Positions 29,933 through 62,529 are shown, numbered from the stretch's first letter. The stretch: 64,000 nucleotides of DNA from Thermoleophilia bacterium (GCA_017882325.1 JADGPQ010000001.1:541-64540), one strand, 5' to 3'. Notes: generated by a model from the sequence alone, not told the origin. A program made the numbers and translations.

Positions 29933-30954
29933 GCTCCGAGCACGCGCCGGTAGATCGCCTCGTAGTCGGCGACCATGCGCTCCACGGTGAAACGCTCCTC
30001 CACCGTGCGTCGGCAGACGGCGGGGTCGATCTCGCCGACGCGGCCCAGCGCGGCGACGAACTCCTCGAAGGTGTCGCAGACGAAGCCGGTCTTGCCGTCG
30101 TCGAGCACCTCGGGCACCGAGCCCTGCCGCAGCGCGACGACCGGAGTCCCGGTGGCCATGGCCTCGATCATCACGAGGCCGAAGGGCTCGGGCCAGGTGA
30201 TGGGGAAGACGAACGCCTTGGCGTGCGCGAACAGCTCGCGCTTGCGCGCGTCGCTCACCTCGCCCTCATAGACGATCTGTTCGCCGTCGACGAGCGGCTC
30301 GACCTTCTCTTCGAAGTAGTCTCGGTAGGGCTCCTGGAGCACGCCGGCCATGATGAGCTTGTGACCCGTGCGCTTGGCGGCCGCGATCGCCAGGTGGAAA
30401 CCCTTGGCTTCGCACACCCTGCCGAAGGCGAGCAGGTAGTCGCCTTTCTGCGGCGTGTACGGCCACTGCTCGACGGCGATGGCGTTGTAGGCGAGGCCGG
30501 CCCAGTTCATGCCGGCCGGCCCCATGGACTGCTGGTACTCGCTGATGCCGATGTAGGCGACCTCGTTCTGGAACTGCTCGTAGAAGCCGTACGCCTGGTC
30601 GTCGAAGGCGCAGTGGACCGTGTGCACCATGGGAGCCGCGAGGTAGCGGCTGAAGGCGATGCCGAGGAAGCCGGAGTGGTCGTGGATGAGGTCGAAGTCG
30701 CCCTGCTCGATGTCGGCGAAAGCGAACGATACGTGGCGCGCGTCATAGCTCGTCTGGCCCAGCACCTCGGGCATCTGCCGCGGGAAGAGGGCGCAGAGCT
30801 CGGCGGCCGTGTGGGAATCGCCGGTAGCGTACAGCACGACCTCGTGCCCTCGCGCGACGAGGCCGTCGCAGAGCTGCTGCACGACCCACTCCGTGCCGCC
30901 GTAGCCGGCGGGCGGGACGGTGATCCACGGTGGGGCGATCTGGGCGATGCGCAT
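29929..30954 (-). CDS. glycosyltransferase family 4 protein
   Basis: GT4 EX7E-type C-terminal region (WPEPFGLVMIEAMATGTPVVA), N-terminal GYGGTEWVV; ATG 30954. Confidence 0.75.
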   Translation of the reverse strand: MRIAQIAPPWITVPPAGYGGTEWVVQQLCDGLVARGHEVVLYATGDSHTAAELCALFPRQMPEVLGQTSYDARHVSFAFADIEQGDFDLIHDHSGFLGIAFSRYLAAPMVHTVHCAFDDQAYGFYEQFQNEVAYIGISEYQQSMGPAGMNWAGLAYNAIAVEQWPYTPQKGDYLLAFGRVCEAKGFHLAIAAAKRTGHKLIMAGVLQEPYRDYFEEKVEPLVDGEQIVYEGEVSDARKRELFAHAKAFVFPITWPEPFGLVMIEAMATGTPVVALRQGSVPEVLDDGKTGFVCDTFEEFVAALGRVGEIDPAVCRRTVEERFTVERMVADYEAIYRRVLGA

Positions 30955-31045
30955 GCCGGCATTGTATAGGACGCCGCCCGGACTGCCGACGTTCTTGCGC
31001 TCGCGGTCTGTCCAACTCCGGCGTCGGAAGGGTAGAGTGTCGGGG

Positions 31046-32311
31046 ATGATCCTGTACCTCGACTGCGCGAACGGCATCAGCGGCGACATGCTCGTGGCCG
31101 CGCTGCTCGCCGTGTCCGGCGCGCGGCCTGACGACCCCGGCCCGCTGGACGACGTCGTGCGGCCGGCGCTGGCGGCTGCCGGCATCGACCCACGGCTGGT
31201 CGCCCTCCAGGAGGTGCGCCGCGGCGGCTTCGCGGCGCTGTCGTTCCGGGTCTCGGACGGCCCGGGCTTCGCCACCTTCGACGAGCTGATCATGTCGATG
31301 TACGCGTCGGACCTGGAGCAGCCCGTGACCGACGCCGTCGCCTCGATCGCGGAGCGCATGGCGGCCGCCGAGGCCGAGATCCACGGCCGCGACGAGGAGC
31401 ACCTGCACGAGCTCGGCGGCATCGACACGGCCGTCGACCTGATCAGCGCCGTGTCGCTGCTCCACCGCCTTGCGCCGGAGCGCGTCGTGGCCTCGCCGCC
31501 GGCGCTGGGCGACGGGTCGATCGAGACGGCGCACGGCGTGCTGCCGGTGCCGGCGCCGGCCGTGCTGTCCTTGCTCGCAGGCCTGCCTACGGCCGGCGGA
31601 CCCGCGGCGCCCGGCGGGCAGCCGCTGGGCGAGCTCACGACGCCCACGGGCGCCGCGCTGCTCGCTCATTTCGCGGAGGAGTTCACGGGCCTGCCGGCGG
31701 GCCGTATCGAGCTCACCGGCTACGGCGCCGGGACGCGTGACGTCCCCGGCCGGCCGAACGTGCTGCGCGCCGTGTGCGTCGAGCCGCCGGCCGCCGGAGA
31801 GGCGAGCGCGGATGCCGGAGCCGCGGAGGCCGGGGCGGATGCCGCCTTCGGCGGCCATGGCCCCGGCGGCCACGTGCTGCTCGAGACCAGCATCGACGAC
31901 TTGAGCCCGGAGCTGCTGGCGCACGCCGCCGACACGCTGCGCGAAGCCGGTGCCGTCGATGTGTGGATGAGCCAGGCGCTCATGAAGAAGGGCCGCCCGG
32001 GCGTGGTGCTGCACGTGCTGACCGCCGCCGCGGACCGCGATCGACTGGCCGGTCTCATCCTCGCCGAGACCTCGACCTTCGGGCTGCGCGTGGTGCCGTG
32101 CGGGCGCCTGTACGCTGAGGAGCGGCACGAGACGATCAAGATCGGCAAGCTCGAGGTGGCGGTGCGATTGGGCTTCGTGGACGGAAAGCTCGCCACCGTC
32201 TCGCCTGAGTTCGAGGATGTGCGTCGCGTGGCGGCCGCCGTCGGGCGGCCGGCCAAGGTCGTGTACGAGGCCGCCCAGTCGGCGGCGCGCACGCGGTTCA
32301 GCGGCGCCTGA
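31046..32311 (+). CDS. larC: LarC family nickel-insertion protein (nickel-pincer nucleotide cofactor biosynthesis, DUF111)
   Basis: MILYLDCANGISGDM N-terminus diagnostic of LarC; TAGAGT -10-like box upstream. Confidence 0.75.
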   Translation: MILYLDCANGISGDMLVAALLAVSGARPDDPGPLDDVVRPALAAAGIDPRLVALQEVRRGGFAALSFRVSDGPGFATFDELIMSMYASDLEQPVTDAVASIAERMAAAEAEIHGRDEEHLHELGGIDTAVDLISAVSLLHRLAPERVVASPPALGDGSIETAHGVLPVPAPAVLSLLAGLPTAGGPAAPGGQPLGELTTPTGAALLAHFAEEFTGLPAGRIELTGYGAGTRDVPGRPNVLRAVCVEPPAAGEASADAGAAEAGADAAFGGHGPGGHVLLETSIDDLSPELLAHAADTLREAGAVDVWMSQALMKKGRPGVVLHVLTAAADRDRLAGLILAETSTFGLRVVPCGRLYAEERHETIKIGKLEVAVRLGFVDGKLATVSPEFEDVRRVAAAVGRPAKVVYEAAQSAARTRFSGA

Positions 32312-32492
32312 GGCCGGAGCTTGTGCGCCGTCCCGGCGCCGTCGTCCGTCCGGCCCTTTCCGCCCCTTGACCAAATTGACCCTCTCGAATACGCACCTGT
32401 AGAATCCATCACAAAGCTCCGCTTCGTCGTGCCACCCGGCACAGGCTCCCCCCAGTGAGACGCGCGGAAGAGTGGAAACAAAGGAGGACGCG

Positions 32493-34211
32493 TTGACATC
32501 GTCTGCGAAGCCCGTTCGCAAATCCCCGGTGCCGAGCGATATCGAGATCGCCCAGGCCGCCACCATGCAGCCCATCCAGGCGATCGCCAAGAATGCGGGC
32601 ATCCTGGAGGACGAGCTCGAGCTGTACGGTCGCTACAAGGCCAAGATCGACTACATGGCCCTGCTCGAGCGCCTCAAGGACAAGCCCGACGGCAAGATCA
32701 TCAACGTCACCGCCATCACCCCGACGCCGCTGGGCGAGGGCAAGACCGTTACCGCCATCGGGCTTACCGAGTCGATGAACGCCATCGGCATCGATACGAT
32801 GCTCGCCCTGCGCGAGCCGTCGCTCGGCCCGGTCTTCGGCATCAAGGGCGGCGCTGCCGGCGGCGGGTACTCGCAGGTCGTCCCGATGGAGGACATCAAC
32901 CTCCACTTCACCGGCGACATCCATGCAGTCGGCGTAGCCAACAACCTGCTCGCCGCCATGGTCGACACCCATCTCATGCACGGCAATGCTCTCGCGATCG
33001 ACCCTCTGAGCATCTCCTGGCGCCGCGTCGTCGATCTCAACGATCGCGCCATGCGCGAGATCGTCAACGGCCTGGGCGGCACGCTCAACGGGATCCCGCG
33101 CCAAACGGGCTATGACATCACAGTCGCCAGCGAGGTCATGGCTATCCTCGGCCTCGCCACCTCACTGAAGGACCTGCGCGAGCGCCTCGGTCGCATCACC
33201 TTCGGCTACAGTACTGCGGGAAAGCCGCTGACCGCCGACGACATCGGTGCCGGCGGCGCCATGGCGGTGCTGCTCAAGGACGCCATCAAGCCCAACCTCG
33301 TGCAGACGCTCGAGGGCAATGCCTGCCTCGTCCACGCCGGTCCGTTCGCCAATATCGCCCAGGGCAACAACTCGATCATCGCCGACAAGGTCGCCATGAA
33401 GCTGGCCGACTACGTCGTCACCGAGTCGGGCTTCGGCGCCGATCTGGGCTCCGAGAAGTTCATGGACATCATCTGCCGCTACGGCGGGTTCGAGCCGAGC
33501 TGTGTGGTCATCACCTGCACCATGCGGGCCCTGAAGATGCACGGCGGCCTGCCGGTCGACCCCGAGCTGCTCAAGGCCGAGAACAACGCCGCCCTCGAAA
33601 AGGGCTGCGAGAACCTCGCCAAGCAGGTCGAGAACATGAAGCTTTTCGGCATCCCCGTGGTGGTCACGATCAACCGCTTCGCCTTCGACCGCGACAGCGA
33701 GGTCGAGATCGTGCGCAGGGAGGCCATCGCGGCCGGCGCCGAAGACGCCGTGCCGATCGACGTCCACGCCCTGGGCGGCGACGGCGCCCAGGAGGCCGCC
33801 GAGATCGTCAAGGCGGCCGCCGACAAGGGCGGCGACTTCAAGTTCCTCTACTCGCTCGACGCCTCCATCAAGGAGAAGATAGAGACCATCGCCACCAAGG
33901 TCTACGGCGCCGACGGCGTGGACTACCTGCCGGATGCCGAGGCCAAGATCAAGCAGTTCACCGAGCAGGGCCTGGACAAGCTGCCGCTGTGCATGGCCAA
34001 GACGCACCTCTCGCTCAGTCACGACCCTGCGCTCAAGGGCCGGCCGCGCGGCTTCCGCGTGCCGATCCGCGACATCAGGCCGGCCACCGGCGCCGGGTAC
34101 TTGTACCCGCTGCTCGGCGAGATGCGCACGATGCCGGGCCTGGCCAAGCGGCCGGCCGCCGTCGACGTCGACATCGACGTCGAGACCGGCCGCATCATCG
34201 GCCTGTTCTAG
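32493..34211 (+). CDS. fhs: formate--tetrahydrofolate ligase
   Basis: SDIEIAQ N-terminus and PTPLGEGKTVTAIGL P-loop; AAGGAGG RBS 5 nt before TTG 32493 (alt GTG 32472); ends TAG. Confidence 0.9.
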   Translation: MTSSAKPVRKSPVPSDIEIAQAATMQPIQAIAKNAGILEDELELYGRYKAKIDYMALLERLKDKPDGKIINVTAITPTPLGEGKTVTAIGLTESMNAIGIDTMLALREPSLGPVFGIKGGAAGGGYSQVVPMEDINLHFTGDIHAVGVANNLLAAMVDTHLMHGNALAIDPLSISWRRVVDLNDRAMREIVNGLGGTLNGIPRQTGYDITVASEVMAILGLATSLKDLRERLGRITFGYSTAGKPLTADDIGAGGAMAVLLKDAIKPNLVQTLEGNACLVHAGPFANIAQGNNSIIADKVAMKLADYVVTESGFGADLGSEKFMDIICRYGGFEPSCVVITCTMRALKMHGGLPVDPELLKAENNAALEKGCENLAKQVENMKLFGIPVVVTINRFAFDRDSEVEIVRREAIAAGAEDAVPIDVHALGGDGAQEAAEIVKAAADKGGDFKFLYSLDASIKEKIETIATKVYGADGVDYLPDAEAKIKQFTEQGLDKLPLCMAKTHLSLSHDPALKGRPRGFRVPIRDIRPATGAGYLYPLLGEMRTMPGLAKRPAAVDVDIDVETGRIIGLF

Positions 34212-34339: not shown

Positions 34340-34981
34340 TTGAGCGACGCTCCCACCATGTATTGCATCGAACCGCTGCAGGTCTACCTTGACGACGCTG
34401 CCGCCAACAAGCCGGCGCCCGGCGGCGGCAGCGTGTCCGCCTGCGCCGGCGCTCTCGGCGCCGCCCTTGTCTCGATGGTCTGCAATCTCACCCGCGGGCG
34501 CGAGAAGTTCGCCGGCGTCGAGGCCCAGATGATCACGCTGGTCGCGGCGTCCGAGGCCGCGCGCGGTCGCCTCGAGCAACTCCTACAGGAAGACACCACC
34601 GCCTACAACGGCGTCATCGCCGCCTACAAGATGCCCAAGGAGACGGCCGAGGAGCAGGCGGCGCGCAGCCAGGCCATCCAGGATGGCCTGATCATCGCCG
34701 CCGACGTGCCGCTCGAGATCTGCGGCGTCGCGGTGGAGGTGTGCCGCCTCTCCAAGGTCGCGGCCGGCCTCGGCAATCCGCAGGCGGTCACCGACGCCGG
34801 CATCGGCGCTATCCTCGGCGAGGCCGCCGTGGTGGGCGCCGCGCTCAACGTCAGGATCAACCTCGGCTCCATCAAGGATCAGGCGTACGTGCAGTCGGCC
34901 GCCGCCCGGATCGACGAGATCCAGGCCGAGGCCGCGGCGCTGCGCGCAGAGGTCCTGGCCATCACGCTCTCCAAGCTCTAG
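34340..34981 (+). CDS. cyclodeaminase/cyclohydrolase family protein (FtcD C-terminal domain-like; methenyl-THF cyclohydrolase candidate)
   Basis: helical FTCD_C-like sequence; GGAGG RBS 6 nt before TTG 34340 (alt ATG 34358); ends TAG. Confidence 0.65.
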   Translation: MSDAPTMYCIEPLQVYLDDAAANKPAPGGGSVSACAGALGAALVSMVCNLTRGREKFAGVEAQMITLVAASEAARGRLEQLLQEDTTAYNGVIAAYKMPKETAEEQAARSQAIQDGLIIAADVPLEICGVAVEVCRLSKVAAGLGNPQAVTDAGIGAILGEAAVVGAALNVRINLGSIKDQAYVQSAAARIDEIQAEAAALRAEVLAITLSKL

Positions 34982-35013: not shown

Positions 35014-35871
35014 ATGGCAGCTCAGATCATCGACGGCAAGGCGATCGCCGCACAGGTACGCGAAGAGATCAAGGCCGAGGTCGCCGCGCTCGCGACGTGC
35101 GGAGTGAAGCCCGGCGTCGCCACCATCCTGGTGGGCGACGACGGCGGCGCGCAGTTCTACCGCGGCCAGATCGAGAAGAACACCGGCACGGTCGGCTTCA
35201 ACTACTACAACAGCACCTTGCCCGACGGCACCAGCGAAGAAGAAGTCCTCGCCCTCATCGACAAGCTCAACAACGACGCCCACGTGCACGGCATCCTGGC
35301 GCTGATGCCTATGGCCGGTGGCATCGACCAGAACAAGGTCTTCAACGCCATCTCGCCGGTCAAGGACCTCGACTGCGTCAACCCGGCCAACATCGGCCAC
35401 GTACTGCTCGGCGACCAGCTGTTCGCGCCGGCGACGCCCTCGGCCTGCATGGAGATCCTCGACCGTGAGGGCGTGGAGCTGCAGGGCCTCGACGTCACTA
35501 TCGTCAACCACTCCAACATCGTCGGAAAGCCAGTCGCGCTGCTGTGCCTCAACCGCAATGCCTCGGTCCACGTCGTGCACGTGTTCAGCAAGGACGTGCC
35601 CGCCGCCTGCCGCGAGGCCGACGTCCTCATCAGCGCAGCGCCGGTGCGCAACCTCATCAAGAGGGACATGGTGAAGCCGGGCGCCGTGGTGATCGACGTC
35701 ACCACCATGCGTGGTGACGATGGCAAGCAGGTCGGCAGCCTGGAGTGGGAAGGCGTCCTCGAGGTCGCCGGCAGCGCCACGCCGGTGCCCGGCGGCGTGG
35801 GCCCCGTGACCAACGTGATGCTGCTGAAGAACGCGCTTGCGGCCTGCAAGGCGCAGAGCGCGTGCGCCTAG
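35014..35871 (+). CDS. folD: bifunctional methylene-THF dehydrogenase / methenyl-THF cyclohydrolase
   Basis: MAAQIIDGKAIA...ATILVGDDG... FolD hallmark N-terminus and NAD(P) domain; ends TAG. Confidence 0.9.
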   Translation: MAAQIIDGKAIAAQVREEIKAEVAALATCGVKPGVATILVGDDGGAQFYRGQIEKNTGTVGFNYYNSTLPDGTSEEEVLALIDKLNNDAHVHGILALMPMAGGIDQNKVFNAISPVKDLDCVNPANIGHVLLGDQLFAPATPSACMEILDREGVELQGLDVTIVNHSNIVGKPVALLCLNRNASVHVVHVFSKDVPAACREADVLISAAPVRNLIKRDMVKPGAVVIDVTTMRGDDGKQVGSLEWEGVLEVAGSATPVPGGVGPVTNVMLLKNALAACKAQSACA

Positions 35872-36055
35872 CAGCCAAGAGGAGCAACGCTGCGAGGTGC
35901 ACGCACATTGATGTATTCTTTTCCTTACTACTGATGGTGGTTAAGCTCATAACCTTCACGCCTCGCGTGGGTCCTGGCTCCATCGGTCCCGCGCGTGCCA
36001 GGCCAAGCCTGCCATCTCGTGCGCGAGATGGGCGTCTTCGAACCGGAGGATCATC

Positions 36056-36598
36056 ATGCCGCGTCGCGTGCTGACCCCCGAGCGCGAGCTCGAGGGCCGG
36101 GAGGGAGCGGGCTCCTCGCTCGATCTCACACCGCTCGCGGAGATCGTCGCCGAGCACTACGCGTCGTCGGGCGACCTGATCCCCGTCCTCCAAAGAGCCC
36201 AGCGCCACTTCGGCTACTTGCCCGATGAGGTCGTCACCGAGATCGCACGTCTCACGCGCTTGCCCGCCTCCCGCGCTTACGGCGTGATCACGTTCTACGC
36301 TCAGTTCTCGACGGTGCCCAGCGGGCGGCACAAGATCTGCGTCTGTCAAGGGACCGCATGCCACGTTCGCGGAGGTCACGGCGTCCTACGCGCGGTCGAA
36401 AGCGAGCTCGGCATCAAAGCCGGCACGACGAGCGACGACCTGGAGCACACGCTCGTGACCGCGGCCTGTCTGGGGGCTTGCTCGCTCGCTCCTGTGATGA
36501 CCGTCGACAGTCAGTACTTCGGCAAGCTGACAGGCGCCAAGGCGGCGGCGGCGCTGGAACGGATCGGCGGTGACGGCGGTGAGCTCGATGACGACTGA
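36056..36598 (+). CDS. NuoE/HoxE-family [2Fe-2S] thioredoxin-like subunit
   Basis: CxxxxC...CxxxC pattern (ICVCQGTACHVRGG ... CLGACSLAPV) of NADH dehydrogenase 24 kDa family. Confidence 0.8.
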   Translation: MPRRVLTPERELEGREGAGSSLDLTPLAEIVAEHYASSGDLIPVLQRAQRHFGYLPDEVVTEIARLTRLPASRAYGVITFYAQFSTVPSGRHKICVCQGTACHVRGGHGVLRAVESELGIKAGTTSDDLEHTLVTAACLGACSLAPVMTVDSQYFGKLTGAKAAAALERIGGDGGELDDD

Positions 36599-39500
36599 CA
36601 CCGATGCGCTCCCCCTGCCGTCGCGCCGGTTGACCTCGGTCGTCGCGCTGCAGGAATATCGTGACGTGGTGCGTGCTCGCCCGGAGGCCGAAAAGACCGT
36701 GCGTGTGTGCATGGACACCGGCTGTCGCGCGGGTGGCGGGGAGAACATCATGCGCGCCTTTGAGCGTGAACTCGAGCACCGCGGCCTCACAGGTTCGGTG
36801 GCCGTTCGGGCGACGGGCTGTCACGGATTCTGCGCCCGCGGTCCGGTCGTGGTCGTCGACCCGGAGGATGTCTTCTACCAGATGGTCGAGCCCGGCGACG
36901 TCCCCGACATCGTCGCCCAGACCATCGTCCGCGGTGAGGTCGTCTCGCGTCTGACCTATCACAGCGCCGACGGTTGCCCGACCGCGCGCCAGCCGGAAAT
37001 CCCTTTCTTCTCCGGGCAGAAGCGCGTGGTGCTGCGCAACTGTGGCACGATCGACCCGACGGACATCGACGCCTACATCGCGCGGGGCGGGTACGAGGCC
37101 TTGGCAAGGGCTCTCGAAGCGATGCCACCCGCTGATGTAGTCGAGACGGTCAAGGCGAGCGGGCTGCGCGGCCGCGGCGGTGGCGGCTTCCCTACGGGGC
37201 GCAAGTGGGAGCTCGCGGCCGCACAGCAGAGCGACAAGAAATACGTGATCTGCAACGCCGACGAAGGCGACCCTGGGGCGTTCATGGACCGCGGGCTCCT
37301 GGAGGGCGACACTCACGCCGTCATCGAGGGCATGTTGATCGGCGCCTATGCGATGGGCGCCGACGAGGGGTACGTCTACTGCCGCGCGGAGTACCCCGGC
37401 GCGATCAAGCATCTTCGCATCGCTCTGGACCAGGCCGAGGAGCGGGGGCTGCTGGGCAACGATATTCTCGGCAGTGGAGTCAACTTCCATCTCAAGGTCA
37501 AGGAAGGGGCCGGCGCTTTCGTCTGCGGGGAAGAGACGGCTTTGATCGCCAGCATAGAGGGCAAGCGCGGGATGCCACGCACGCGCCCGCCGTTCCCGGC
37601 GGTCAGCGGCCTGTGGGGCCGGCCCACGAACATCAACAACGTCGAGACGTGGGCCAACGTCCCTGCGATCATCGATCGCGGCGCCGAATGGTACCGGTCG
37701 ATGGGCACCGAGAACAGCCCGGGCACCAAGGTCTTCTCGCTGGCCGGCAAGCTCAACAACACGGGTCTCGTCGAGGTCCCCATGGGGGTCACCCTCCGTG
37801 AGCTCATCTTCGATATCGGCGGCGGGATCACGCGCAATCGGCATTTCAAGGCCGTCCAGATGGGTGGTCCGTCCGGAGGCTGCCTGAGCGAGCAGCATCT
37901 CGACTTACCGATCGACTACGACTCGCTCCGCAACGCCGGCGCGATCATGGGCTCCGGCGGGGTCATCGTCATGGACGAGACGACGTGCATGGTCGACCTG
38001 GCCCGGTTCTTCGTCAACTTCACGCAGGCCGAGTCGTGCGGCAAGTGCGTGCCGTGCCGGCTGGGCACCAAACGCATGCTTGAGATCCTCACCCGCATCA
38101 CGAACGGTGAGGGCACTATGGACGATCTCGGCCGCCTTGAGAAGCTGGCGCAAACGATCAAGGCTACGAGTCTGTGTGGGCTCGGCCAGACGGCCCCCAA
38201 CCCGGTGCTGTCGACGCTCAAGTACTTCCGCCACGAGTACGAAGCCCACATCCTCGACAAGCACTGTGCGGCTTGTCAGTGTGAGGGCCTGGTCAAGGCT
38301 CCCTGCAGTCACACCTGCCCGGCGGGGGTCGACACGGCGAGCTACCTCGCTCTGGTGGCCGCCGGGCAGTTCAAGGAGGCCATGGCGGTGCACATGGAGC
38401 GCAATCCGCTGCCCAGCATCTGCGGCCGCGTGTGCCATCATCCCTGTGAGTCCATGTGTAAGCGCGCCGAGCTCGATGATGCTGTGTCGGTGGCGGCTGT
38501 CAAGCGCTTCATGGGGGACATCGCTCCCTCGACCGAGATCGTGCGTCCTCGGCCGCTCGATCAGGGCAAACGTGTAGCGGTGGTGGGCTCTGGCCCGGCG
38601 GGGCTTTCGTGCGCCTATCAGCTCGCCTTGGCCGGCTTTCCCGTCACCATGTTCGAGGCTCTGTCCGTGGCCGGAGGGATGCTTGCCGTCGGTCTGCCCG
38701 CGTTCCGCATGCCCAAGGATGTCGTGGCGCGCGAGATCGAAGCCATCGCCGAGCTCGGGGTGGAGATACGCCTCGGCGAGGCGCTCGGACGCGACTTCTC
38801 GCTGGACTCGCTTCTCAGCGACGGCTACGAGGCGGTGTTCCTGGCTTTGGGCACGCACGTTTCCAATCCCCTCGACATCGAGAACGAGAACTCCCCGGGC
38901 GTCCTGGTCGGCTTGGAGTTCCTCCGAGACGTCAATCTCGACAACGGGGCCTCGGTGGGCGACTCGGTGGTGGTCGTCGGTGGCGGTTCAGTCGCCATGG
39001 ACGCGGCTCGTTGCGCGCTTCGCCTGCAGGCTATCGACGGTAGGGAGCGCGATGTCACGCTTGTGTACCGGCGCTCCCGCCACGAGATGCCGGCCTACGA
39101 GTGGGAGATCGTGGAGGGAGACGAGGAAGGTCTGAGGTTCGAGTATCTGGCGGCTCCAGCCCGCGTCTTGCTCGGCCAGGACGGCCGGGTGTCCGGGCTC
39201 GAGTGTGTGCGCATGGAGCTGGGCGAGCCCGACGAGAGCGGGCGCCGCCGTCCCCGCGCGGTGCCAGGCTCGGAGTTCGTCATCCCCTGCGACACGATCA
39301 TCCCGGCCGTCGGCCTGTCGGTCGATCTGAGCTGGCTGTCCGGCGAGCTCGCGGTCACTCCGCGGGGGACGATAGCGGCGGACAGGTTCGAGTTCCGGAC
39401 GTCCCATCCCAAAGTGTTTGCCGGTGGAGATTCGGTGCGGGGCCCATCGACCCTGATCGAGGCGATCGGGGATGGCCAGCGCGCGGCCTTCGCGATCGAG

Positions 39501-39737
39501 CGCCTGCTCACCGGCACCGGCATGAGGGAGGAGTACCTGAGCACCATCCAGGAGGCCCGGAGGGTGCCGCGCTACGTGCCGCTCGACCGCCTCGAGGAGG
39601 AGGTCCCGCGCGTGGCGGCTGAGCACGTTCCCGCCGACTCACGCGTGAGGAGCTTCGCCGAGGTCGTGCAGACGATCACTGCCGAGGAAGCCTGCTGCGA
39701 GGCTGGTCGCTGTCTGCGCTGCGATCTCGAACACTGA
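36570..39737 (+). CDS. multidomain flavoprotein: N-terminal Trx-like [2Fe-2S] + NuoF-like (FMN/NADH, 4Fe-4S) fused to GltD/NfnB-like FAD/NAD(P)H oxidoreductase
   Basis: NuoF motifs (GRGGGGFPTG, SLAGKLNNTGLVEVP, ESCGKCVPCR) followed by ferredoxin-like Cys clusters and GltD-like VAVVGSGPAGLSCAYQLA dinucleotide fold; 1055 aa; start GTG 36570 or ATG 36588. Confidence 0.8.
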   Translation: MTAVSSMTTDTDALPLPSRRLTSVVALQEYRDVVRARPEAEKTVRVCMDTGCRAGGGENIMRAFERELEHRGLTGSVAVRATGCHGFCARGPVVVVDPEDVFYQMVEPGDVPDIVAQTIVRGEVVSRLTYHSADGCPTARQPEIPFFSGQKRVVLRNCGTIDPTDIDAYIARGGYEALARALEAMPPADVVETVKASGLRGRGGGGFPTGRKWELAAAQQSDKKYVICNADEGDPGAFMDRGLLEGDTHAVIEGMLIGAYAMGADEGYVYCRAEYPGAIKHLRIALDQAEERGLLGNDILGSGVNFHLKVKEGAGAFVCGEETALIASIEGKRGMPRTRPPFPAVSGLWGRPTNINNVETWANVPAIIDRGAEWYRSMGTENSPGTKVFSLAGKLNNTGLVEVPMGVTLRELIFDIGGGITRNRHFKAVQMGGPSGGCLSEQHLDLPIDYDSLRNAGAIMGSGGVIVMDETTCMVDLARFFVNFTQAESCGKCVPCRLGTKRMLEILTRITNGEGTMDDLGRLEKLAQTIKATSLCGLGQTAPNPVLSTLKYFRHEYEAHILDKHCAACQCEGLVKAPCSHTCPAGVDTASYLALVAAGQFKEAMAVHMERNPLPSICGRVCHHPCESMCKRAELDDAVSVAAVKRFMGDIAPSTEIVRPRPLDQGKRVAVVGSGPAGLSCAYQLALAGFPVTMFEALSVAGGMLAVGLPAFRMPKDVVAREIEAIAELGVEIRLGEALGRDFSLDSLLSDGYEAVFLALGTHVSNPLDIENENSPGVLVGLEFLRDVNLDNGASVGDSVVVVGGGSVAMDAARCALRLQAIDGRERDVTLVYRRSRHEMPAYEWEIVEGDEEGLRFEYLAAPARVLLGQDGRVSGLECVRMELGEPDESGRRRPRAVPGSEFVIPCDTIIPAVGLSVDLSWLSGELAVTPRGTIAADRFEFRTSHPKVFAGGDSVRGPSTLIEAIGDGQRAAFAIERLLTGTGMREEYLSTIQEARRVPRYVPLDRLEEEVPRVAAEHVPADSRVRSFAEVVQTITAEEACCEAGRCLRCDLEH

Positions 39738-39789
39738 CGCCTCGGGGCCCAGGATGGTCGGGCGAGCCGGCACGTGAGGCCAACCGTGG

Positions 39790-39830
39790 CGGCGCCCCCG
39801 GGGACCGGCGCCGTCGCGGCCCTTCTTGTT
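39790..39830 (+). terminator. candidate terminator hairpin after the flavoprotein gene
   Basis: CGGCGCC-N10-GGCGCCG 7-bp stem followed by T-rich CCTTCTTGTTCC. Confidence 0.3.
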
Positions 39831-40194
39831 CCCGGTTCATCCGGTGGTGGCCACTCTGGCGGTTGCCGTAACATTCCCTATGCCCTGCGCGACGTGGGCG
39901 TCATCGACTCGGAGAGTCTGGGCGAGCATCTGGCGCACGGCGGCTCGCGCTGTATCACGGCCTACTCGGTGACCACTACGGCGGCGCGCCATCCTCTGGG
40001 CCCCCGGGACGTCTTGCGGCGGGCGCCCACGTCGCGTTCTCGCTCGCATCAAGGCTGACGAGGGGCTGTCTGATTCGGCAACCTTCGAAGACGGCGCATT
40101 GCCGAAACCTACGAAAGTCTTCCGGCTCTTGACATTTTCCGACGCCGGGTATCGAAATAGCCTCACAGAATCGACGCGGACCAGGGGGGTCGAC

Positions 40195-40686
40195 TTGCCG
40201 TTCAGTCTCGACGCGATCGATCGCCAGATCATATCGCTCCTGTTGGAAGACGGCCGCATTTCGTCGGCCGAGATCACACGGCGTATCGGGCACGTTTCCG
40301 AGCGCGCCGTGCGCTACCGCATCGAGCGGCTGGTCCGCACGGGCGTGATCCGCATCAGCGCCATCGTCAATCCTCAGGCGGTGGGGTTCACAGTGATTGG
40401 AGACGTCCTCATCGACGTCGCTCCCGGCAAGCTGCAGGACGTGGCCGCGCAGCTCGTCGAGTTCCCGACTGTCAGCTACGTGGCCGGATCCGTCGGCGAA
40501 GGCGATCTCAGCGTGCAGGTCTACGCTCGCGACACCGAGGAGCTGCTGCGCTTCGTCAATGAAGTCATCGGCAAGGTCCCTGGGGTCACCCGCACCAAGC
40601 TCGCGATGGTGCCGTGGAAGCTCAAGGATGTCTATCAGTGGCATGTGCCTGTGGAGGCCGCCGAAGAAGGGAGGGCGATCGGCTGA
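40195..40686 (+). CDS. Lrp/AsnC family transcriptional regulator
   Basis: AsnC HTH (LDAIDRQIISLLLEDGRISSAEITRRIG) and RAM domain; TTG 40195 start inferred. Confidence 0.75.
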   Translation: MPFSLDAIDRQIISLLLEDGRISSAEITRRIGHVSERAVRYRIERLVRTGVIRISAIVNPQAVGFTVIGDVLIDVAPGKLQDVAAQLVEFPTVSYVAGSVGEGDLSVQVYARDTEELLRFVNEVIGKVPGVTRTKLAMVPWKLKDVYQWHVPVEAAEEGRAIG

Positions 40687-40777: not shown

Positions 40778-42007
40778 GTGGCTGAAGAACTAGCCTTTGC
40801 TCGTAAGGCCAGCGGCTTGGTCCGCGGCCTTTCTATGTGGGACGCTTTCGCCGTCGGCTTCATGTTCGTCGTGTTCGGCATCAGGATCTTCGCCAAGGTC
40901 CAGAAGGTCGTCATGGTCTTCGGCATCGGCGGGTGCGCCATCATCGGCATCGCGCTCACCGTCACCTCCAGGGCGTCTTTCATGGTGAAGTGGGATGCGT
41001 GGGTCACGGCCAACCACTCGGCCGACCTCATCTACAGCAAGTTCCCCGCCGTCGTCGCCAAGGCTGCCAGCGTGCCGATCATCCCTATCACCTGGAACTG
41101 GGCCGACACCCTCGGCGTGATGGTCGCCATGTCGTGGCTCTTTGCCTACGCGTACTCGATCTCGTTCATCGCCGGCGAGGTCAAGCGCCCCGACAAGACC
41201 ATCATCATGTCCAACCTGTTCGCGATCCTGGTGCCGGCCGCGTTCATGCTCTGGATCGGCGCCGCGATGTACCACTCGATCGGCTTCCAGTTCTTGTCCG
41301 CGTCAGGCTACGCGGACAACAACGGCATCGACGCCATCGCCAACCTGCCGTGGTCCACGCACTTCGTCGGCCTCGCGGCCGTCATGGCGGGCGGCAGCGC
41401 TTTCGGCAAGTTCATCAGCGCGATCATGGGCCTTTCGTACGTGGCCTTCACCCTGTGGTGGATCGCCCTTTCGTACCTGGCCTTCCCGCGCATCCTTTTC
41501 GCCTGGGGCATGGACCGTATGGGCCCGAAGTGGTTCACGGACATCAATCCCCGCTTCGCATCGCCCGTGAAGAACCACCTTCTGTGCTTCGTCCTCGGCG
41601 AGGCTCTCCTGGCCCTGTACTTCTTCAAGTTCAACAGCACCATGCAGAACATCACCGTGACGGGCATGCAGATCACCTCCGTGTTCGCGGTCACGGCTCT
41701 CGCTGCGGTCCTGTTCCCGTATATGAAGCGCTCCAAGGGTGTGTGGGACTCCTCGCCCTACAAGACGTGGAGGTTCCTGGGGCTGCCGATGGTCGTCTGG
41801 GGCGGTGCCGTCAACCTCGTCTATCTTGCCCTGCTCATGTACGAGTTCGTCTTCAAGAAGGCGGCCGGCGCCTTCACGACGGGCTCCACGATCCTCTTTG
41901 GGTTGGTGTGGGTGTTGGGCATCATCTGGTACTTCTTCTGGAAACAGCGCAGCAGGAGCGTGGGCGTCGACGTGTCGATGACCTACGGCGAGTTGCCGCC
42001 TGAATAA
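40778..42007 (+). CDS. APC-superfamily amino acid permease
   Basis: RGLSMWDAFAVGFMFV TM1-like motif, about 11 TM segments; GTG 40778 with AAGGGGGG RBS; GC lower than flanks. Confidence 0.6.
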   Translation: MAEELAFARKASGLVRGLSMWDAFAVGFMFVVFGIRIFAKVQKVVMVFGIGGCAIIGIALTVTSRASFMVKWDAWVTANHSADLIYSKFPAVVAKAASVPIIPITWNWADTLGVMVAMSWLFAYAYSISFIAGEVKRPDKTIIMSNLFAILVPAAFMLWIGAAMYHSIGFQFLSASGYADNNGIDAIANLPWSTHFVGLAAVMAGGSAFGKFISAIMGLSYVAFTLWWIALSYLAFPRILFAWGMDRMGPKWFTDINPRFASPVKNHLLCFVLGEALLALYFFKFNSTMQNITVTGMQITSVFAVTALAAVLFPYMKRSKGVWDSSPYKTWRFLGLPMVVWGGAVNLVYLALLMYEFVFKKAAGAFTTGSTILFGLVWVLGIIWYFFWKQRSRSVGVDVSMTYGELPPE

Positions 42008-55068: not shown

Positions 55069-55246
55069 ACTGACCAGCGCAGCCGGGTCAACGTAAGGTG
55101 CGCCGACAGGCCAACCGAACACAAGCGCGGCGACGCCGACGCGGCCGACGCGCCTGCCGGAATGGCCAAGCGAAGCCCCTTTTCGGCTCCGTTTTGCCCT
55201 GCAAGATGGCGGTTTCTCCGCTGTTGCTCCGCCTCCGGCCGTTGGC

Positions 55247-55252
55247 TAGAAT
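55247..55252 (+). promoter_or_regulatory. -10-like hexamer TAGAAT upstream of aor (same GCTAGAATGG context as upstream of argS at 15169-15174)
   Basis: sequence motif only; implies about 90-nt 5' UTR before TTG 55344. Confidence 0.3.
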
Positions 55253-55343
55253 GGCGAAGCCGGTAAGCCCACCGTTTCCCGCCCCGATGGCTAGTTCGCG
55301 ACGCCCGCGGAGCGGGGAAGGAGTACGTCGTCAGGAGGACGCA

Positions 55344-57122
55344 TTGGATTTCTACCAAGGCAAAGTGCTCAAGATCGACCTGAGCGCGGGCACTGCCATC
55401 GTCGAGCCGCTCAACATGGAGTGGGCGGAGTTGTACATCGGCGGCAAGGGCCTCATGCTGCGCTACCTGTGGGAGCTCACCGAGCCTGGCCTCGACCCAT
55501 GGTCACCTGACAACCCCTTCATCGTGGCCACCGGCCCCTTCGCCGGCACAAACGTCAGCACGTGTTCGCGCGTCGTCATCGGCGGCAAGAGCCCGGCCTC
55601 GGGCACCATGCTCGACAGCTACATGGGCGGCTCGTTTGGTTCCATCCTCAAGTTCGCCGGCTACGACATGGTCATCGTCCAGGGCCTGGCGCCGCAGCTC
55701 AGCACCATCCTCATCAAGGACGACGTCGTCACCCTCGCCCCCTGCCCCGCGTACACGGGCATGAAGACGTCCGAGATCGAAGCGGCTCTGCGCGCCGACT
55801 TCGACGCGAAGATGACCGCCATCAGCATCGGCCCGGCCGGCGAGAGCAAGCTGCCGTGGGCCTGCATCTCCAACGACCAGTATCACAAGGCCGGGCGAGG
55901 CGGCACGGGCGCGCTGCTGGGCTCCAAGAACGTGAAGGCCATCGCCGTTGCCGGCACCGGCAAGGTCACCGTCGGCGACGCCAAGGCGTTCCTCGACGAC
56001 ATCGAGCGCATGGACGCCGACTACATCCTCACGGACGACAACTACTGGGTTCACGAAGAAGGCACGCCCATCCTCGTCGGCATCACCAGTGGCGCGGGGT
56101 GCCAGCCGGTGCGCAACTTCTCGGAGGGTACCAATCCGGACGTCGAGAACATCGACTCCGAGGCCTTCCAGAAGATCCGCGTCAAGAAGCGCGCCTGTTA
56201 CCAGTGCACGCTCGCCTGTCGCAACTTCCACCGCGTCGAGGGCGCCGAAGGCGAAGGCCCGGAGTACGAGACCATCGCGCTCTGCGGCGCCAACGTCGGC
56301 GTCGGTGACATCGACGCGCTGATGAAGTTCAACATCGAATGCGACGAATGGGGCCTCGACACGATCTCCACCGGCAACGTTCTCGGCCTCGCGATGGACA
56401 TGACCGAGAAGGGCATCCACGACTTTGGCGTGCGCTTCGGCGATCTCGATGCCTACCTCAAGGTGCCCGAGCAGCTCGCGACTCGCAGCGGTATCGGCGC
56501 CGAGCTGGCGATGGGTGCCAAGGCCCTTGCCGAGAAGCACGGGTGCCCCGAGCTCGCCATGCATTCCAAGAACCTCGAGATGCCCGGCTACGACCCGCGC
56601 GGCTCGTTCGGGATGAGCATCGCTTACGCGAGCTCGGATCGCGGCGGCTGCCACATGCGCTCGTTCCCCATCGGCGTCGAGGTCGTCGAGGGCAGCATGC
56701 CGGCCGATACGCTGGACTCGAGCAAGGTCGTGTGGAACATCGACTTCCAGAATCACTACGCCTTCAAGTTCTGCGGCATCTGGTGCGACTTCTGGGCCAT
56801 CGACTACGACCAGATGACGCAGCTCATGAAGCACCTCTGGAAACGCGACGTGACCGAGGACGAGCTCAAGGTCGTCGGCGAGCGGGTCTGGAACCTGGGG
56901 CGCCTGTACAATCTGCGCGAAGGCACCGAGAAGAAAGACGATTTCGTGCCCAAGGCGATGCTCGAAAAGCCCTTCACCACCGGCGTCTCCGCCGGCAAGG
57001 TCATCGGCAGCGAGCGCTTCGCCAAGGTAATGGACGAGTACTACGCGACGCGTGGCTGGGACGAGAACGCAGTGCCCACCGAAGACAAGCTCCGGCAACT
57101 CGGCATCGACGTGCGGCTCTGA
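55344..57122 (+). CDS. aor: tungsten-containing aldehyde:ferredoxin oxidoreductase (AOR family)
   Basis: N-terminal FYQGKVLKIDLSAGT...IGGKGL AOR domain 1, C-terminal AOR domains with Cys ligands (CYQCTLACRNFH); AGGAGGA RBS 4 nt before TTG 55344. Confidence 0.85.
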   Translation: MDFYQGKVLKIDLSAGTAIVEPLNMEWAELYIGGKGLMLRYLWELTEPGLDPWSPDNPFIVATGPFAGTNVSTCSRVVIGGKSPASGTMLDSYMGGSFGSILKFAGYDMVIVQGLAPQLSTILIKDDVVTLAPCPAYTGMKTSEIEAALRADFDAKMTAISIGPAGESKLPWACISNDQYHKAGRGGTGALLGSKNVKAIAVAGTGKVTVGDAKAFLDDIERMDADYILTDDNYWVHEEGTPILVGITSGAGCQPVRNFSEGTNPDVENIDSEAFQKIRVKKRACYQCTLACRNFHRVEGAEGEGPEYETIALCGANVGVGDIDALMKFNIECDEWGLDTISTGNVLGLAMDMTEKGIHDFGVRFGDLDAYLKVPEQLATRSGIGAELAMGAKALAEKHGCPELAMHSKNLEMPGYDPRGSFGMSIAYASSDRGGCHMRSFPIGVEVVEGSMPADTLDSSKVVWNIDFQNHYAFKFCGIWCDFWAIDYDQMTQLMKHLWKRDVTEDELKVVGERVWNLGRLYNLREGTEKKDDFVPKAMLEKPFTTGVSAGKVIGSERFAKVMDEYYATRGWDENAVPTEDKLRQLGIDVRL

Positions 57123-57152
57123 CAGCCGGCTCGCGGAAGGAAGGGATCGCAG

Positions 57153-57650
57153 ATGCCCCACGTCATGATCAGCAACAAGAAGTGCACCGGCTGCCACATG
57201 TGCGAGCTGGGCTGCTCGGCATTTCACGAGGGCGGGTTTCAACCCTCGCTGGCTCGGCTCTTCACGGATGTCAACCCCACGACGGCCGTGATCAAGGGTC
57301 ATTCGTGCCTGCAGACCGCCTGCGCCAAGTGCCAGGAGGCCTGTCCGGAGGACGCCATTGTGACCAGGCAGATCACCGTGAAGCCGGCGGGCGAGTTCAG
57401 CAGCAGGGAGAAGAACGGCGATACGGTCACCGGCTTCGTCCTGATCGTGGACGAGTCCAAGTGCACGAACTGCGGCGATTGCTACGAGGTCTGCCCGTAC
57501 GACGTCATCCATGAGCACCCCGCCCGCGAAGTCGCGTTCAAGTGCGATCTGTGCGATGGCGACCCGCAGTGCATCGCCTTCTGCCAGAACAAGTACGTCC
57601 TCGCCGTCGATCTCAAGCTCGACAAGAAAGATAAGGAACTGCGGGCCTGA
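57153..57650 (+). CDS. 4Fe-4S ferredoxin-domain electron-transfer subunit (AorA-like)
   Basis: four CxxCxxCxxxCP-type clusters (CTGCHMC, CAKCQEACP, CTNCGDCYEVCP, CDLCDGDPQC). Confidence 0.8.
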   Translation: MPHVMISNKKCTGCHMCELGCSAFHEGGFQPSLARLFTDVNPTTAVIKGHSCLQTACAKCQEACPEDAIVTRQITVKPAGEFSSREKNGDTVTGFVLIVDESKCTNCGDCYEVCPYDVIHEHPAREVAFKCDLCDGDPQCIAFCQNKYVLAVDLKLDKKDKELRA

Positions 57651-57652
57651 CG

Positions 57653-57922
57653 ATGGCCACGGCTTACGTCAAGCTCCCGGTCGGCATGACCACCGCGGCC
57701 GGTGAACGCGCGGTCCAGTGCCAAGCCGCTACTGTGGCCGAAGCGCTCGAGCAGGCCGTCGCCGTCGAACCGCGGCTCAAGCCGCGCATCTTTCGCGATG
57801 ACGGGCGCATGTGGGCCGGCGTGTTCCTCAATGCCCGCAACATCAACGCGCTCCAGGGTCTCGAGACGCCGCTCAGCGACGGCGACAAGCTCGCCGTGGT
57901 GCCGCCCATCTCGGGTGGCTGA
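57653..57922 (+). CDS. MoaD/ThiS family sulfur-carrier protein (AorD-like)
   Basis: 89 aa, beta-grasp, C-terminal GG. Confidence 0.75.
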   Translation: MATAYVKLPVGMTTAAGERAVQCQAATVAEALEQAVAVEPRLKPRIFRDDGRMWAGVFLNARNINALQGLETPLSDGDKLAVVPPISGG

Positions 57923-57958
57923 AGCGAGTTTCCGACGCCGGCGCAGATGACCGACCAC

Positions 57959-57986
57959 GGGGCGGGCGCCGTACGGCGCCCGCCCC
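57959..57986 (+). terminator. perfect 12-bp hairpin GGGGCGGGCGCC-GTAC-GGCGCCCGCCCC after aor operon
   Basis: seen directly; no U tract (typical for high-GC). Confidence 0.5.
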
Positions 57987-58017
57987 GTCGCTGTCGCGTT
58001 CTGGTACCATCTCGCGC

Positions 58018-58680
58018 ATGAACATCGACGCCGCCAGACGACAGCTTGCCGAAGCGGGGCTCCAGAGCGCCGTCGGCGGCCGCGCCAGCGTTCGCCGTTT
58101 CCTCCCCGACCCCGTCCCACGGGAGGACGTGACGACGATGGTCGAACTGGCGGTGCGTGCGGCCAACGCCGGCAACGCCCAGATGTGGAGGTTCGTTGCC
58201 GTGGACGACGCGGTCACGCAGGTCGCGATGCGTCAGGCCGTCGACGACGCCATCGACGAGATGGCCGCCTGGCCGCAACTCGCCGGCAGCAGCAAAGAGA
58301 TCAAGGCCCTACGGGCCTACGCGACGTTCTTTGTGGACGCGCCGCTGGTGATGGCCGTGTTCGGCCTGCCCTACCTCTCTCGCGCCGACGAGATGCTGCT
58401 CGCCCGCGGTCTCAGCACGGAGGAGCGCGACAGGCTGCGCGCGCGCCCGGACCTGCAGAGCATCGGCGCCGCCGTCCAGCTCTTCTGTTCGGCGGCGCAC
58501 GCCTTGGGCTACGGCTCGTGCTGGATGACGGCCCCCGTACTCGCGGCGCCCGGCATCGAAGGGCTGCTTGGCGTGGAGCCTCCGGCCAGGCTGGTCGCCG
58601 TCGTGCCCGTCGGGCGGCCCGCGGGAGCCGTCAATCCCACGTCACGGCGACCGGTCGGCGAGGTGCTCGAGTTCCGCTGA
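58018..58680 (+). CDS. nitroreductase family protein
   Basis: RSVRRFLPDPVPREDV N-terminus and GYGSCWM motif of NADH oxidase/nitroreductase fold. Confidence 0.7.
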   Translation: MNIDAARRQLAEAGLQSAVGGRASVRRFLPDPVPREDVTTMVELAVRAANAGNAQMWRFVAVDDAVTQVAMRQAVDDAIDEMAAWPQLAGSSKEIKALRAYATFFVDAPLVMAVFGLPYLSRADEMLLARGLSTEERDRLRARPDLQSIGAAVQLFCSAAHALGYGSCWMTAPVLAAPGIEGLLGVEPPARLVAVVPVGRPAGAVNPTSRRPVGEVLEFR

Positions 58681-58689
58681 GCGGCCACG

Positions 58690-61831: not shown

Positions 61832-61873
61832 GAGGTCCCACGTCTCTGCCGCGCGGCTGCCGGCGCGCCGTTG

Positions 61874-61879
61874 TAGAAT
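61874..61879 (+). promoter_or_regulatory. -10-like TAGAAT (TTGTAGAATC) 10 nt upstream of tRNA-Pyl 5' end
   Basis: same 10-mer TTGTAGAATC occurs at 17507-17516 upstream of M42 peptidase gene. Confidence 0.35.
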
Positions 61880-61889
61880 CATGGCGTGC

Positions 61890-61962: not shown

Positions 61963-62037
61963 CTCACGTCTCCGGCGCGGACGGGCGTGGCGCGGCGAGC
62001 GGCCGGAGCTGTGCACGGGCGCCACGCGGGAGGGGAC

Positions 62038-62489: not shown

Positions 62490-62529
62490 CCGCCGCGGAT
62501 CTACGCTGCCACCGACGCGGGCGGCGCCG

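Follow-up and report, generated by a model that had tools for sequence, protein, structure and literature searches.

How bifurcating enzymes of the Bfu type work catalytically continues to be debated. To our knowledge, all Bfu structures obtained to date are complexes of at least three subunits, which reduce ferredoxin via the clusters B3/B4. Among the described systems, Stn is a Bfu complex that is derived from a formate dehydrogenase (FDH) and has turned into a pure transhydrogenase with a catalytically dead FdhF-like domain; its GltD domain, homologous to the one considered below, takes the electrons of NADPH at a non-bifurcating flavin adenine dinucleotide (FAD) and passes them through its two clusters to the flavin mononucleotide (FMN) of StnB (PMC10482914). 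The present study deals with a gene pair on a 64,000-nucleotide stretch of DNA (the window) from a Thermoleophilia bacterium (GCA_017882325.1, JADGPQ010000001.1:541-64540), where positions are counted from the first letter. By its ArgS homologues, the organism, a soil-type actinobacterium, falls among the uncultured Actinomycetota of the class Thermoleophilia. The pair, located at 36056-39737 on the + strand, encodes a NuoE-like subunit and a large NuoF::GltD fusion flavoprotein, and it is followed by a 457-bp gap and by an lrp gene. Judging from homology and motifs, it is predicted to be a soluble two-subunit iron-sulfur flavoenzyme descended from the BfuBC core of Bfu-type (HydABC/Stn/NfnABC) enzymes. 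Its most likely function, with a probability of about 0.45, is that of a stand-alone NADH/NADPH transhydrogenase serving the folate one-carbon pathway.

The two genes and the parts of the fusion are the following.

36056-36598, + strand: NuoE/BfuC-like [2Fe-2S] subunit of 180 amino acids (PF01257, E = 4e-46; CxxxxC...CxxxC present).
36588-39737, + strand: BfuB(NuoF)::GltD fusion flavoprotein of 1049 amino acids, read from ATG 36588.
36663-36920, + strand: N-terminal thioredoxin-like [2Fe-2S] domain (the BfuB "B5" site) with Cys41/46/78/82 (PF01257, E = 6e-10).
37149-38249, + strand: NuoF core with the FMN/NADH domain, SLBB, the [4Fe-4S] "B1" site (Cys484/487/490/530) and the GAFMD motif (PF01512, PF10531, PF10589).
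38250-38531, + strand: junction and Fer4_20 dicluster domain (PF14691, E = 1.5e-19).
38571-39476, + strand: FAD/NAD(P)H two-Rossmann module, GltD/NfnB-like, with a VYRRS motif (PF07992, E = 1.7e-24).
39687-39737, + strand: C-terminal tail EAxRCLRCDLEH-stop (alignment with StnC).

The initial annotation contained both open reading frames (ORFs) and described the fusion as a protein of 1055 amino acids with a thioredoxin-like [2Fe-2S]/NuoF/GltD architecture. Both ORFs are present, and domain mapping with Pfam and NCBIfam agrees with this architecture, including the GltD-like character of the C-terminal half. The length requires correction. The fusion ORF comprises 1055 codons from GTG 36570 and 1049 from ATG 36588, and the latter start, six codons downstream, is probably the true one, because public gene calls contain the exact 1049-residue product beginning there. 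This start gives an 11-nt overlap with the nuoE stop codon. In the 1055-residue numbering, the Pfam domains are a thioredoxin-like 2Fe-2S domain (32-117), Complex1_51K (194-365), SLBB (389-446), NADH_4Fe-4S (476-560), Fer4_20 (568-654) and Pyr_redox_2 (668-969); the NCBIfam matches are to NuoF (9e-155) and to GltD-type models (as low as 1e-139).

The conservation of ligands was scored across 119 fused homologues, with cysteines numbered according to the 1049-residue product. The B5 cysteines 41, 46, 78 and 82 are conserved in 98-100% of these homologues and those of B1 are invariant, as are the cysteines in the motifs of the junction and Fer4_20 (H554, CxxxxC (C560/C565), PCxxxCP and CGRVCxHPCExxC). 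The H-x5-C-x4-C stretch that comes after the NuoF core of BfuB is kept in the fusion. Both nucleotide modules are complete in the pair, and their ligands are invariant in the 119 homologues. The tail cysteines C1042/C1045 (CxxC) are 100% conserved, and all of the homologues end in RCLRCDLE(H/R). In canonical GltD, such as that of E. coli, the cluster domain begins with the N-terminal motif EAxRCLxC; in the fusion, RCLxC follows the FAD/NADPH module, the same as in StnC, i.e., it is displaced to the C-terminus. The fusion and StnC also have YRR(S/T) in common, a motif of their GltD parts that would contact the 2'-phosphate. Seven items make up the predicted set of cofactors, namely FMN, FAD, the [2Fe-2S] clusters C1 and B5, the [4Fe-4S] cluster B1, a pair of [4Fe-4S] clusters in the GltD module and a His/Cys site whose nature is uncertain. 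The NADPH and NADH specificities of the pair are what we infer from the motif homology to StnC and HydB. Regarding the ferredoxin branch, the fusion has no Fer4-type Pfam match at E<=0.01, and the alignment with StnB reveals that the B3/B4 ferredoxin domain has lost both of its CxxCxxCxxxCP motifs, with Fer4_20 beginning in their place. The fusion ends at RCLRCDLEH, and no NuoG/FdhF-like sequence comes after it.

The fusion and the small subunit were also compared with all solved structures. The best match of the N-terminal half of the fusion is NiFe-HydB of A. mobile (7t2r_B, 814 bits, about 65-70% identity), and further top matches are HydB of T. kivui and A. woodii, NfnB of C. saccharolyticus and StnB of S. 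ovata. The non-bifurcating relatives score far lower (FdsB, 442 bits; NuoF of complex I, about 385 bits). The sequence DEGDPGAFMDR is identical in the fusion and 7t2r_B. Residues A202/M204 of A. mobile HydB, which belong to the GAFMD motif and are situated near FMN, have been named as Bfu-specific (Schut et al. 2022, PMC9304861); the third Bfu-specific residue named there, F182, was not located in the alignment of the fusion with 7t2r_B. The best matches of the C-terminal half are Csac NfnA (9bov_A 97-567, 390 bits) and S. ovata StnC (8oh5_C 96-566, 338 bits). NfnL is a more distant relative of this half than the GltD domain of StnC/NfnA, which is non-bifurcating. The best matches of the small subunit are BfuC subunits (7t2r_C with 148 bits, HydC, NfnC and StnA), with NDUFV2 of complex I at about 95 bits. 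The resemblance to Stn, HydB and NfnB pointed out in the initial annotation is real as far as kinship is concerned; the ferredoxin bifurcation suggested along with it is not established, the B3/B4 domain being replaced by the GltD module.

Compared with the published description of Bfu enzymes (PMC9304861), the small subunit is, like BfuC, a NuoE-like protein with one [2Fe-2S] cluster (IPR002023), and the fusion contains the FMN/NADH domain, SLBB and B1 of the BfuB core as well as B5 and GAFMD. Two defining features are lacking. The fusion has no C-terminal ferredoxin-type 2x[4Fe-4S] domain (B3/B4, IPR017896), and neither the window nor the flanks of the closest relatives contain a BfuA gene ([2Fe-2S] + [4Fe-4S], NuoG-like) to accompany B and C. 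The family appears to lie outside the census made in that study, which demanded a ferredoxin-type domain in BfuB.

The closest relatives of the pair constitute a Thermoleophilia clade of six loci with 70-90% identity (the window, L001, L002, L003, L084/85 and L092; L numbers are used for related loci throughout). The order fhs-fchA-folD-nuoE-fusion, then lrp, is constant in the clade, and this synteny, together with the fdhA and metVF operons of other phyla, upholds the link with one-carbon metabolism proposed in the initial annotation. The absence of a NuoG/HydA-like third subunit, also mentioned there, extends to the entire window, where tblastn searches for FdhA, NuoG-N, HydA, MetV and MetF gave nothing at E<=1e-3. 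FdhA, NuoG, HydA and MetVF were not found in the flanks of the clade loci either, which cover 7-10 kb or less, since on one side several of the contigs stop at about 1.7-5.6 kb. Among the lineages sampled, this clade is the only one without a nearby partner. In none of the six loci is a reading frame of the pair interrupted, and every cofactor ligand is retained. The dN/dS values are 0.12-0.29 for the nuoE-like gene and, for the fusion, 0.16-0.18 overall and 0.12-0.29 in each domain, similar to folD. The pair is under purifying selection and is not decaying. In a rough neighbour-joining tree based on the NuoF core, the clade lies next to the fused clade associated with FdhA/MetVF, so the loss or relocation of a partner is the simplest history.

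Because no BfuA-type partner gene is present nearby, it is most likely that the pair works on its own, and with two complete pyridine-nucleotide sites joined by iron-sulfur clusters it would be able to exchange hydride between NADPH and NAD+ by itself. In the proposed mechanism, NADPH would be oxidised at the FAD of the GltD module. The electrons would then go singly through the two clusters of this module to the FMN flavobicluster, probably via C1, the mobile [2Fe-2S] cluster that the small subunit is expected to carry, and NAD+ would be reduced at the FMN. The overall path would be NADPH-FAD-[4Fe-4S]2-(C1)-FMN-NAD+, and the reverse direction may also be used. The participation of C1 is suggested because the GltD module holds the sequence position of B3/B4, directly after HxxxxxCxxxxC, and its clusters would be within the reach of C1. 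The enzyme would keep the NAD(H) pool in balance with the NADP(H) that FolD, a product of the neighbouring fhs-fchA-folD block, turns over. This role is a coherent one, given the position of the gene beside folD and the apparent processing of methyl groups by the organism. We infer this electron path, the independence from ferredoxin and the link to FolD.

A complete pyrrolysine system was detected at 58681-63891, 19 kb downstream of the pair.

58681-59787: pylB (TIGR03910, 442 bits, cut-off 348).
59784-61028: pylC (337 bits, cut-off 248).
60995-61831: pylD (190 bits, cut-off 150).
61890-61962: tRNA-Pyl (CUA).
63340-63891: PylSn-like ORF.

This system implies pyrrolysine-dependent methylamine methyltransferases and hence a route of methyl-tetrahydrofolate (methyl-THF) oxidation in the organism.

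A search of 5.8 billion proteins with the fusion gave at least 8000 matches. Nearly all of the best 120 are about 1000-1058 amino acids long (two are shorter partials) and have the NuoF + Fer4_20/Pyr_redox_2 architecture; their annotations are generic, for instance "NuoF", "FAD-dependent oxidoreductase" or "hydrogenase". The fusion is a member of a large, apparently uncharacterised family, where a GltD module takes the place of the ferredoxin-binding dicluster domain of BfuB. No description of a NuoF::GltD fusion was found in PMC9304861 or in the searchable literature, the coverage of which is incomplete and is no proof of absence. Within the same incomplete coverage, no MetVF reductase with such a module was found, and none is among types I-IV of methylenetetrahydrofolate reductase (MTHFR) in PMC8760232.

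Partners were surveyed in fused homologues of other phyla with readable flanks. A NuoG-like/molybdopterin FdhA is encoded directly beside the fusion in L004, L006, L009, L086/87, L088, L089, L090, L091 and L097-99, metV-metF in L004, L089 and L093-96, an [FeFe]-hydrogenase HydA in L007 and a short NuoG-N-like protein in L005, L038 and L089. The family recurs across Chloroflexota, Desulfobacterota, Poribacteria and Actinomycetota in operons for FDH, MTHFR and folate one-carbon metabolism, and for this reason it bears on the coupling of NADH/NADPH to the methyl branch of one-carbon metabolism.

Some of these loci have peculiarities of their own. The FdhA beside fused homologues is often split into two ORFs at an in-frame TGA in the context ...IDHCARL-TGA-HS (L086 7057-9756, L090 11129-13819, L091 3248-5941); this TGA is a selenocysteine codon and not a frameshift. 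Chloroflexota-like loci (L004 4861-12632, L089 6802-14151 and L093-L096) contain operons of the type (fdhA or NuoG-N)-nuoE-fusion-metV-metF, candidates for a MetVF methylene-THF reductase linked to NAD(P)H. A metagenome-assembled genome of Pirellulaceae (L038 7845-12430) encodes a 1255-residue triple fusion NuoE+NuoF+GltD, followed by a 209-residue NuoG-N-like protein with [2Fe-2S] + 2x[4Fe-4S]. In a metagenome-assembled genome of Armatimonadia (L007 6640-14495), nuoE and the fused NuoF::GltD gene are accompanied by the gene of a 581-residue [FeFe]-hydrogenase HydA, after which comes the gene of a HydA-like sensory protein that contains domains of the histidine-kinase and receiver types. The first three would make up a HydABC-type hydrogenase whose B subunit has an NADPH module in the ferredoxin domain's stead.

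Several points weigh against a stand-alone enzyme. No member of the fused family is characterised in the literature searched. All fused homologues outside the clade that have readable flanks adjoin a BfuA-type or MetVF partner, which argues that the family normally works as a module of a larger enzyme; 64 kb of the genome were seen, and a partner encoded elsewhere is possible. The B1 cluster, the port to BfuA, is still invariant. The use of NADP(H) by FolD is presumed, and any passage of electrons to FMN from the clusters of the GltD module is conjectural where a NuoG-like bridge is missing. The main alternative, and a real possibility, is that the pair serves as the NAD(P)H-binding module of a larger one-carbon enzyme encoded elsewhere, namely a MetVF methylene-THF reductase and/or an FDH with an FdhA-type BfuA. 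The conserved B1 ligands fit this explanation, as do the FdhA, metV-metF or [FeFe]-HydA neighbours of fused homologues in other lineages and the FdhA/MetVF association of the NuoF-core branch nearest to the Thermoleophilia clade; moreover, the methylamine methyltransferases expected from the pyrrolysine system would need a methyl-THF-oxidising MTHFR somewhere in the genome. However, no such gene is present in the 64-kb window or the flanks of the six related loci, the partnerless layout has been stable over about 30% protein divergence, and the subunits of such complexes are co-operonic in all other sampled lineages.

Another explanation retains ferredoxin as a partner and considers the pair as a minimal bifurcating Nfn-type transhydrogenase, like StnABC/NfnABC minus the A subunit (2 NADPH + NAD+ + Fd_ox <-> 2 NADP+ + NADH + Fd_red). 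The pair does keep B1-FMN-C1, the minimal Bfu bifurcation site according to Li et al. (PMC11829005), in addition to B5 and GAFMD, and the organism possesses ferredoxin-linked enzymes, such as an aldehyde:ferredoxin oxidoreductase (AOR) with a ferredoxin-like subunit at 55074-57650. Nevertheless, the B3/B4 dicluster domain, treated in the papers on Csac NfnABC as the ferredoxin route and binding region, is absent, and the NADPH electrons of Stn/Nfn enter via BfuA and B1, so the geometry here must be a different one. Because the ferredoxin branch is missing, this reaction is unlikely. Far less probable still is the view of the pair as a decaying or non-functional remnant of an FDH/MTHFR operon whose catalytic genes were lost. 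The absence of partner genes and the decay of nearby permease genes in several relatives and in the window could be read in this way, but the frames intact in six loci, the low dN/dS in each domain and the complete set of ligands essentially exclude a functionless relic. The stand-alone transhydrogenase is preferred here. It is a tentative and rather doubtful extension of this reading that the pair, as a self-sufficient descendant of the Bfu core with an NADP(H)/FAD module in the structural place of the ferredoxin-reducing branch and with [B1-FMN-C1] gating NADH/NADPH, represents a new class of soluble transhydrogenases, and that the large BfuB::GltD family couples NAD(H) and NADP(H) into FDH, MetVF-type MTHFR (a fifth type of methylene-THF reductase) and [FeFe]-hydrogenase.

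The AOR mentioned above is a tungsten-type enzyme with AFOR_N and AFOR_C domains (55074-57122). It is followed by a 175-residue 2x[4Fe-4S] protein (57123-57650) and then by a ThiS/MoaD-like protein (57635-57922) and a member of the nitroreductase family (57802-58680), and the cluster at 55074-58680 indicates ferredoxin-linked anaerobic metabolism. By analogy with WorABCSL, the AOR was considered as the missing partner of the pair and rejected: it is 15 kb off, behind unrelated genes, and has no BfuA.

The pair belongs to a series of genes arranged on the + strand in the order larC, fhs, fchA, folD, nuoE-like gene, fusion, gap, lrp and amino-acid permease. The features that surround the pair are listed below.

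32472-34211, + strand: fhs, formate--tetrahydrofolate ligase, which opens the conserved one-carbon folate block (PF01268, E = 2e-252; same place in L001, L003 and L084).
34340-34981, + strand: fchA, methenyl-THF cyclohydrolase (PF04961; NCBIfam FchA, E = 2e-59).
35014-35871, + strand: folD, methylene-THF dehydrogenase/cyclohydrolase (PF00763 + PF02882; NCBIfam FolD models).
35872-36055, + strand: folD-nuoE spacer, with a sequence kept in the closest relatives (alignment) and GGAGG at 36045-36049 ahead of the ATG.
39738-40066, no strand assigned: part of the gap that varies and does not code; its first 84-106 nt resemble the post-fusion spacer of L092, and the remainder is unique.
40067-40194, + strand: conserved upstream region of lrp (85% identity to L001, 78% to L002 and L092).
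40195-40686, + strand: Lrp/AsnC-family regulator of 163 amino acids (PF13404 + PF01037; 91% identity to the L001 orthologue).

Directly 5' of fhs, a LarC-type nickel-pincer cofactor insertion protein (LarC1+LarC2) is encoded at 30920-32311, and it occupies the same place in L001, L003 and L084. The folD-nuoE spacer is unusually well kept compared with L001 9285-9468 and L002 3383-3556 (e.g., GCACATTGnTGTATnCTT...CTACTGATGGTGA), and it is locally AT-rich. Neither a consensus promoter nor a terminator was found in it. A riboswitch, for example one for THF, was rejected in view of the absence of an Rfam match and of covariation support in the three sequences available. The spacer may be a promoter or a regulatory site for the nuoE-like and fusion genes.

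In the initial annotation, the region 39738-40194 was regarded as non-coding-looking, its ORF 39774-40058 as having no recognisable family, and a remnant of a NuoG/HydA-like gene was suspected. The first two statements proved right. In the window, which has a G+C content of about 67%, the GC3 of genuine genes is 0.8-0.9, and codon-position GC signal is absent from every frame of the gap. The 94-residue ORF is flat at the three codon positions (0.71/0.66/0.75, compared with 0.68/0.48/0.84 in the fusion gene), has no Pfam or NCBIfam match and has no homologue among 5.8 billion proteins, which rules out a protein gene, including a conserved small one. The suspicion of a remnant was not borne out, since tblastn and tblastx searches for NuoG, FdhA, HydA or MetVF at E<=10 gave noise only. 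The extension of the fusion into this in-frame ORF through selenocysteine or read-through was discarded as well, because the 119 homologues stop at RCLRCDLE(H/R) and the extension is not coding-like. A structured RNA was rejected on the basis of an empty Rfam search with permissive filters and fold z-scores of -0.76 and +1.10. The gap contains nested inverted repeats, 39888-39900/40024-40036 (13/13 complementary) and 39861-39873/40071-40083 (85%); their fold is no stabler than that of shuffled sequence, and there is no second copy in the window.

Over its final 100-125 bp the gap is conserved, and this part is evidently the region upstream of lrp. The lrp gene starts with TTG 40195, preceded by a Shine-Dalgarno-like AGGGGGG, and the alignment reveals CTTGACA at 40128-40134, invariant in five relatives, and a TGCCG box at 40100-40104. 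No consensus promoter or terminator was found in the gap, and the invariant TTGACA ahead of lrp is the sole promoter-like feature of the spacers. The distance between the fusion and lrp among the relatives is 185, 199, 275, 457, 1435 or about 2320 bp. The spacer of about 2.3 kb in L092 contains an intact second copy of an amino-acid permease gene (L092 4455-6074), and the 1.4-kb spacer of L001 contains frameshifted fragments of such a copy (tblastn, 1e-70; L001 13458-14343), while the gap of the window retains the first 84-106 nt and the last approximately 124 nt of the flanks of the L092 permease. The permease gene that follows lrp in the window (40778-42007) has an in-frame internal deletion of about 137 residues (approximately 30-166 of the orthologues), and the downstream permease copy of L002 is frameshifted (L002 8000-9645). 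The turnover of permease genes is rapid at this locus. As there is no coding, RNA or partner-remnant signal and permease copies come and go at the site, the gap is ordinary, fast-evolving intergenic DNA at a place of permease gain and loss rather than the scar of a redox subunit.

A natural, widespread variant with an NADPH/FAD module instead of B3/B4 is a ready-made test case for the mechanism of bifurcation. The two-subunit form without BfuA is especially useful in this respect, as it could reveal the behaviour of B1-FMN-C1 when ferredoxin is not the low-potential partner. The family also touches the unresolved question of the electron donor of MetVF-type reductases. For the window itself, the gain is a better annotation, in which 450 bp turn out to be ordinary spacer DNA. 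The architecture and the distribution of the family are of interest for both the bifurcation and one-carbon fields. The findings comprise the domains and their homologies, the conservation of ligands, the synteny, the purifying selection and the lack of a partner within the window; the specific function suggested for this organism is deduced from a partial genome.

By curated score cut-offs or by gene context, the pair is distinct from complex I NuoEF, GltD, NfnSL and FDH. The fusion scores 515 bits with the complex I model NuoF TIGR01959, below the cut-off of 558.65, the NuoE models are under their cut-offs as well, and there are no nuoG or other nuo genes near the pair. The GltD models TIGR01318 (312.7, cut-off 482.95) and TIGR01317 (207.9, cut-off 447.7) also remain below threshold, and no gltB is adjacent. 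The large subunit of NfnSL (NfnAB) belongs to the same GltD-like fold family (Fer4_20 + FAD/NADPH module); here, however, NAD(H) would go to the FMN/NuoF module and not to NfnS with its PyrK-like FAD + [2Fe-2S]. No NfnS-type gene is adjacent, the neighbours being folD, the nuoE-like gene and lrp, and no NfnS query was run on the whole window. With regard to NAD(P)-dependent FDHs, such as Moorella thermoacetica FdhAB and FdsGBA/HylABC-Fdh, the fusions of other phyla that adjoin a selenocysteine- or cysteine-type FdhA unite the NADP port of Moorella FdhB (PMC5736913) with a NuoEF-type NAD port, whereas no molybdo/tungstopterin FdhA is encoded in the window or near the clade relatives. In the type III RnfC2-MetV-MetF of A. 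woodii (PMC8760232), a NuoF/RnfC-like NADH module is likewise found in a methyl-branch cluster, but RnfC2 has neither a GltD module nor a NuoE partner, and metV/metF are absent from this window.

The bifurcating hydrogenases (A. mobile NiFe-HydABCSL, 7t2r; HydABC of T. maritima, T. kivui as well as A. woodii) show the highest similarity to the N-terminal half and the small subunit. Their BfuBC has B5, B1, the HxxxxxCxxxxC stretch, C1 and GAFMD in common with the pair, which differs in having no hydrogenase or other BfuA partner, no B3/B4 and an attached NADPH/FAD module. StnABC/NfnABC (S. ovata, 8oh5; C. saccharolyticus, 9bov; archaeal, 9n5u) are composed of the same three blocks, a NuoE-like protein, a BfuB-type NuoF and an NfnB/GltD-like FAD/NADPH domain. 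They possess an A subunit with [2Fe-2S], further [4Fe-4S] clusters and an FdhF-like tetramerisation domain, as well as B3/B4, all of which are missing here. In StnC, the GltD domain is embedded in the NuoG/FdhF-like subunit, which wires it to B1 and builds the tetramer, and the fusion lacks such embedding. Thus, the GltD domain that is inserted in the NuoG/FdhF-like A subunit of StnABC/NfnABC is carried in this locus by the C-terminus of the B subunit.

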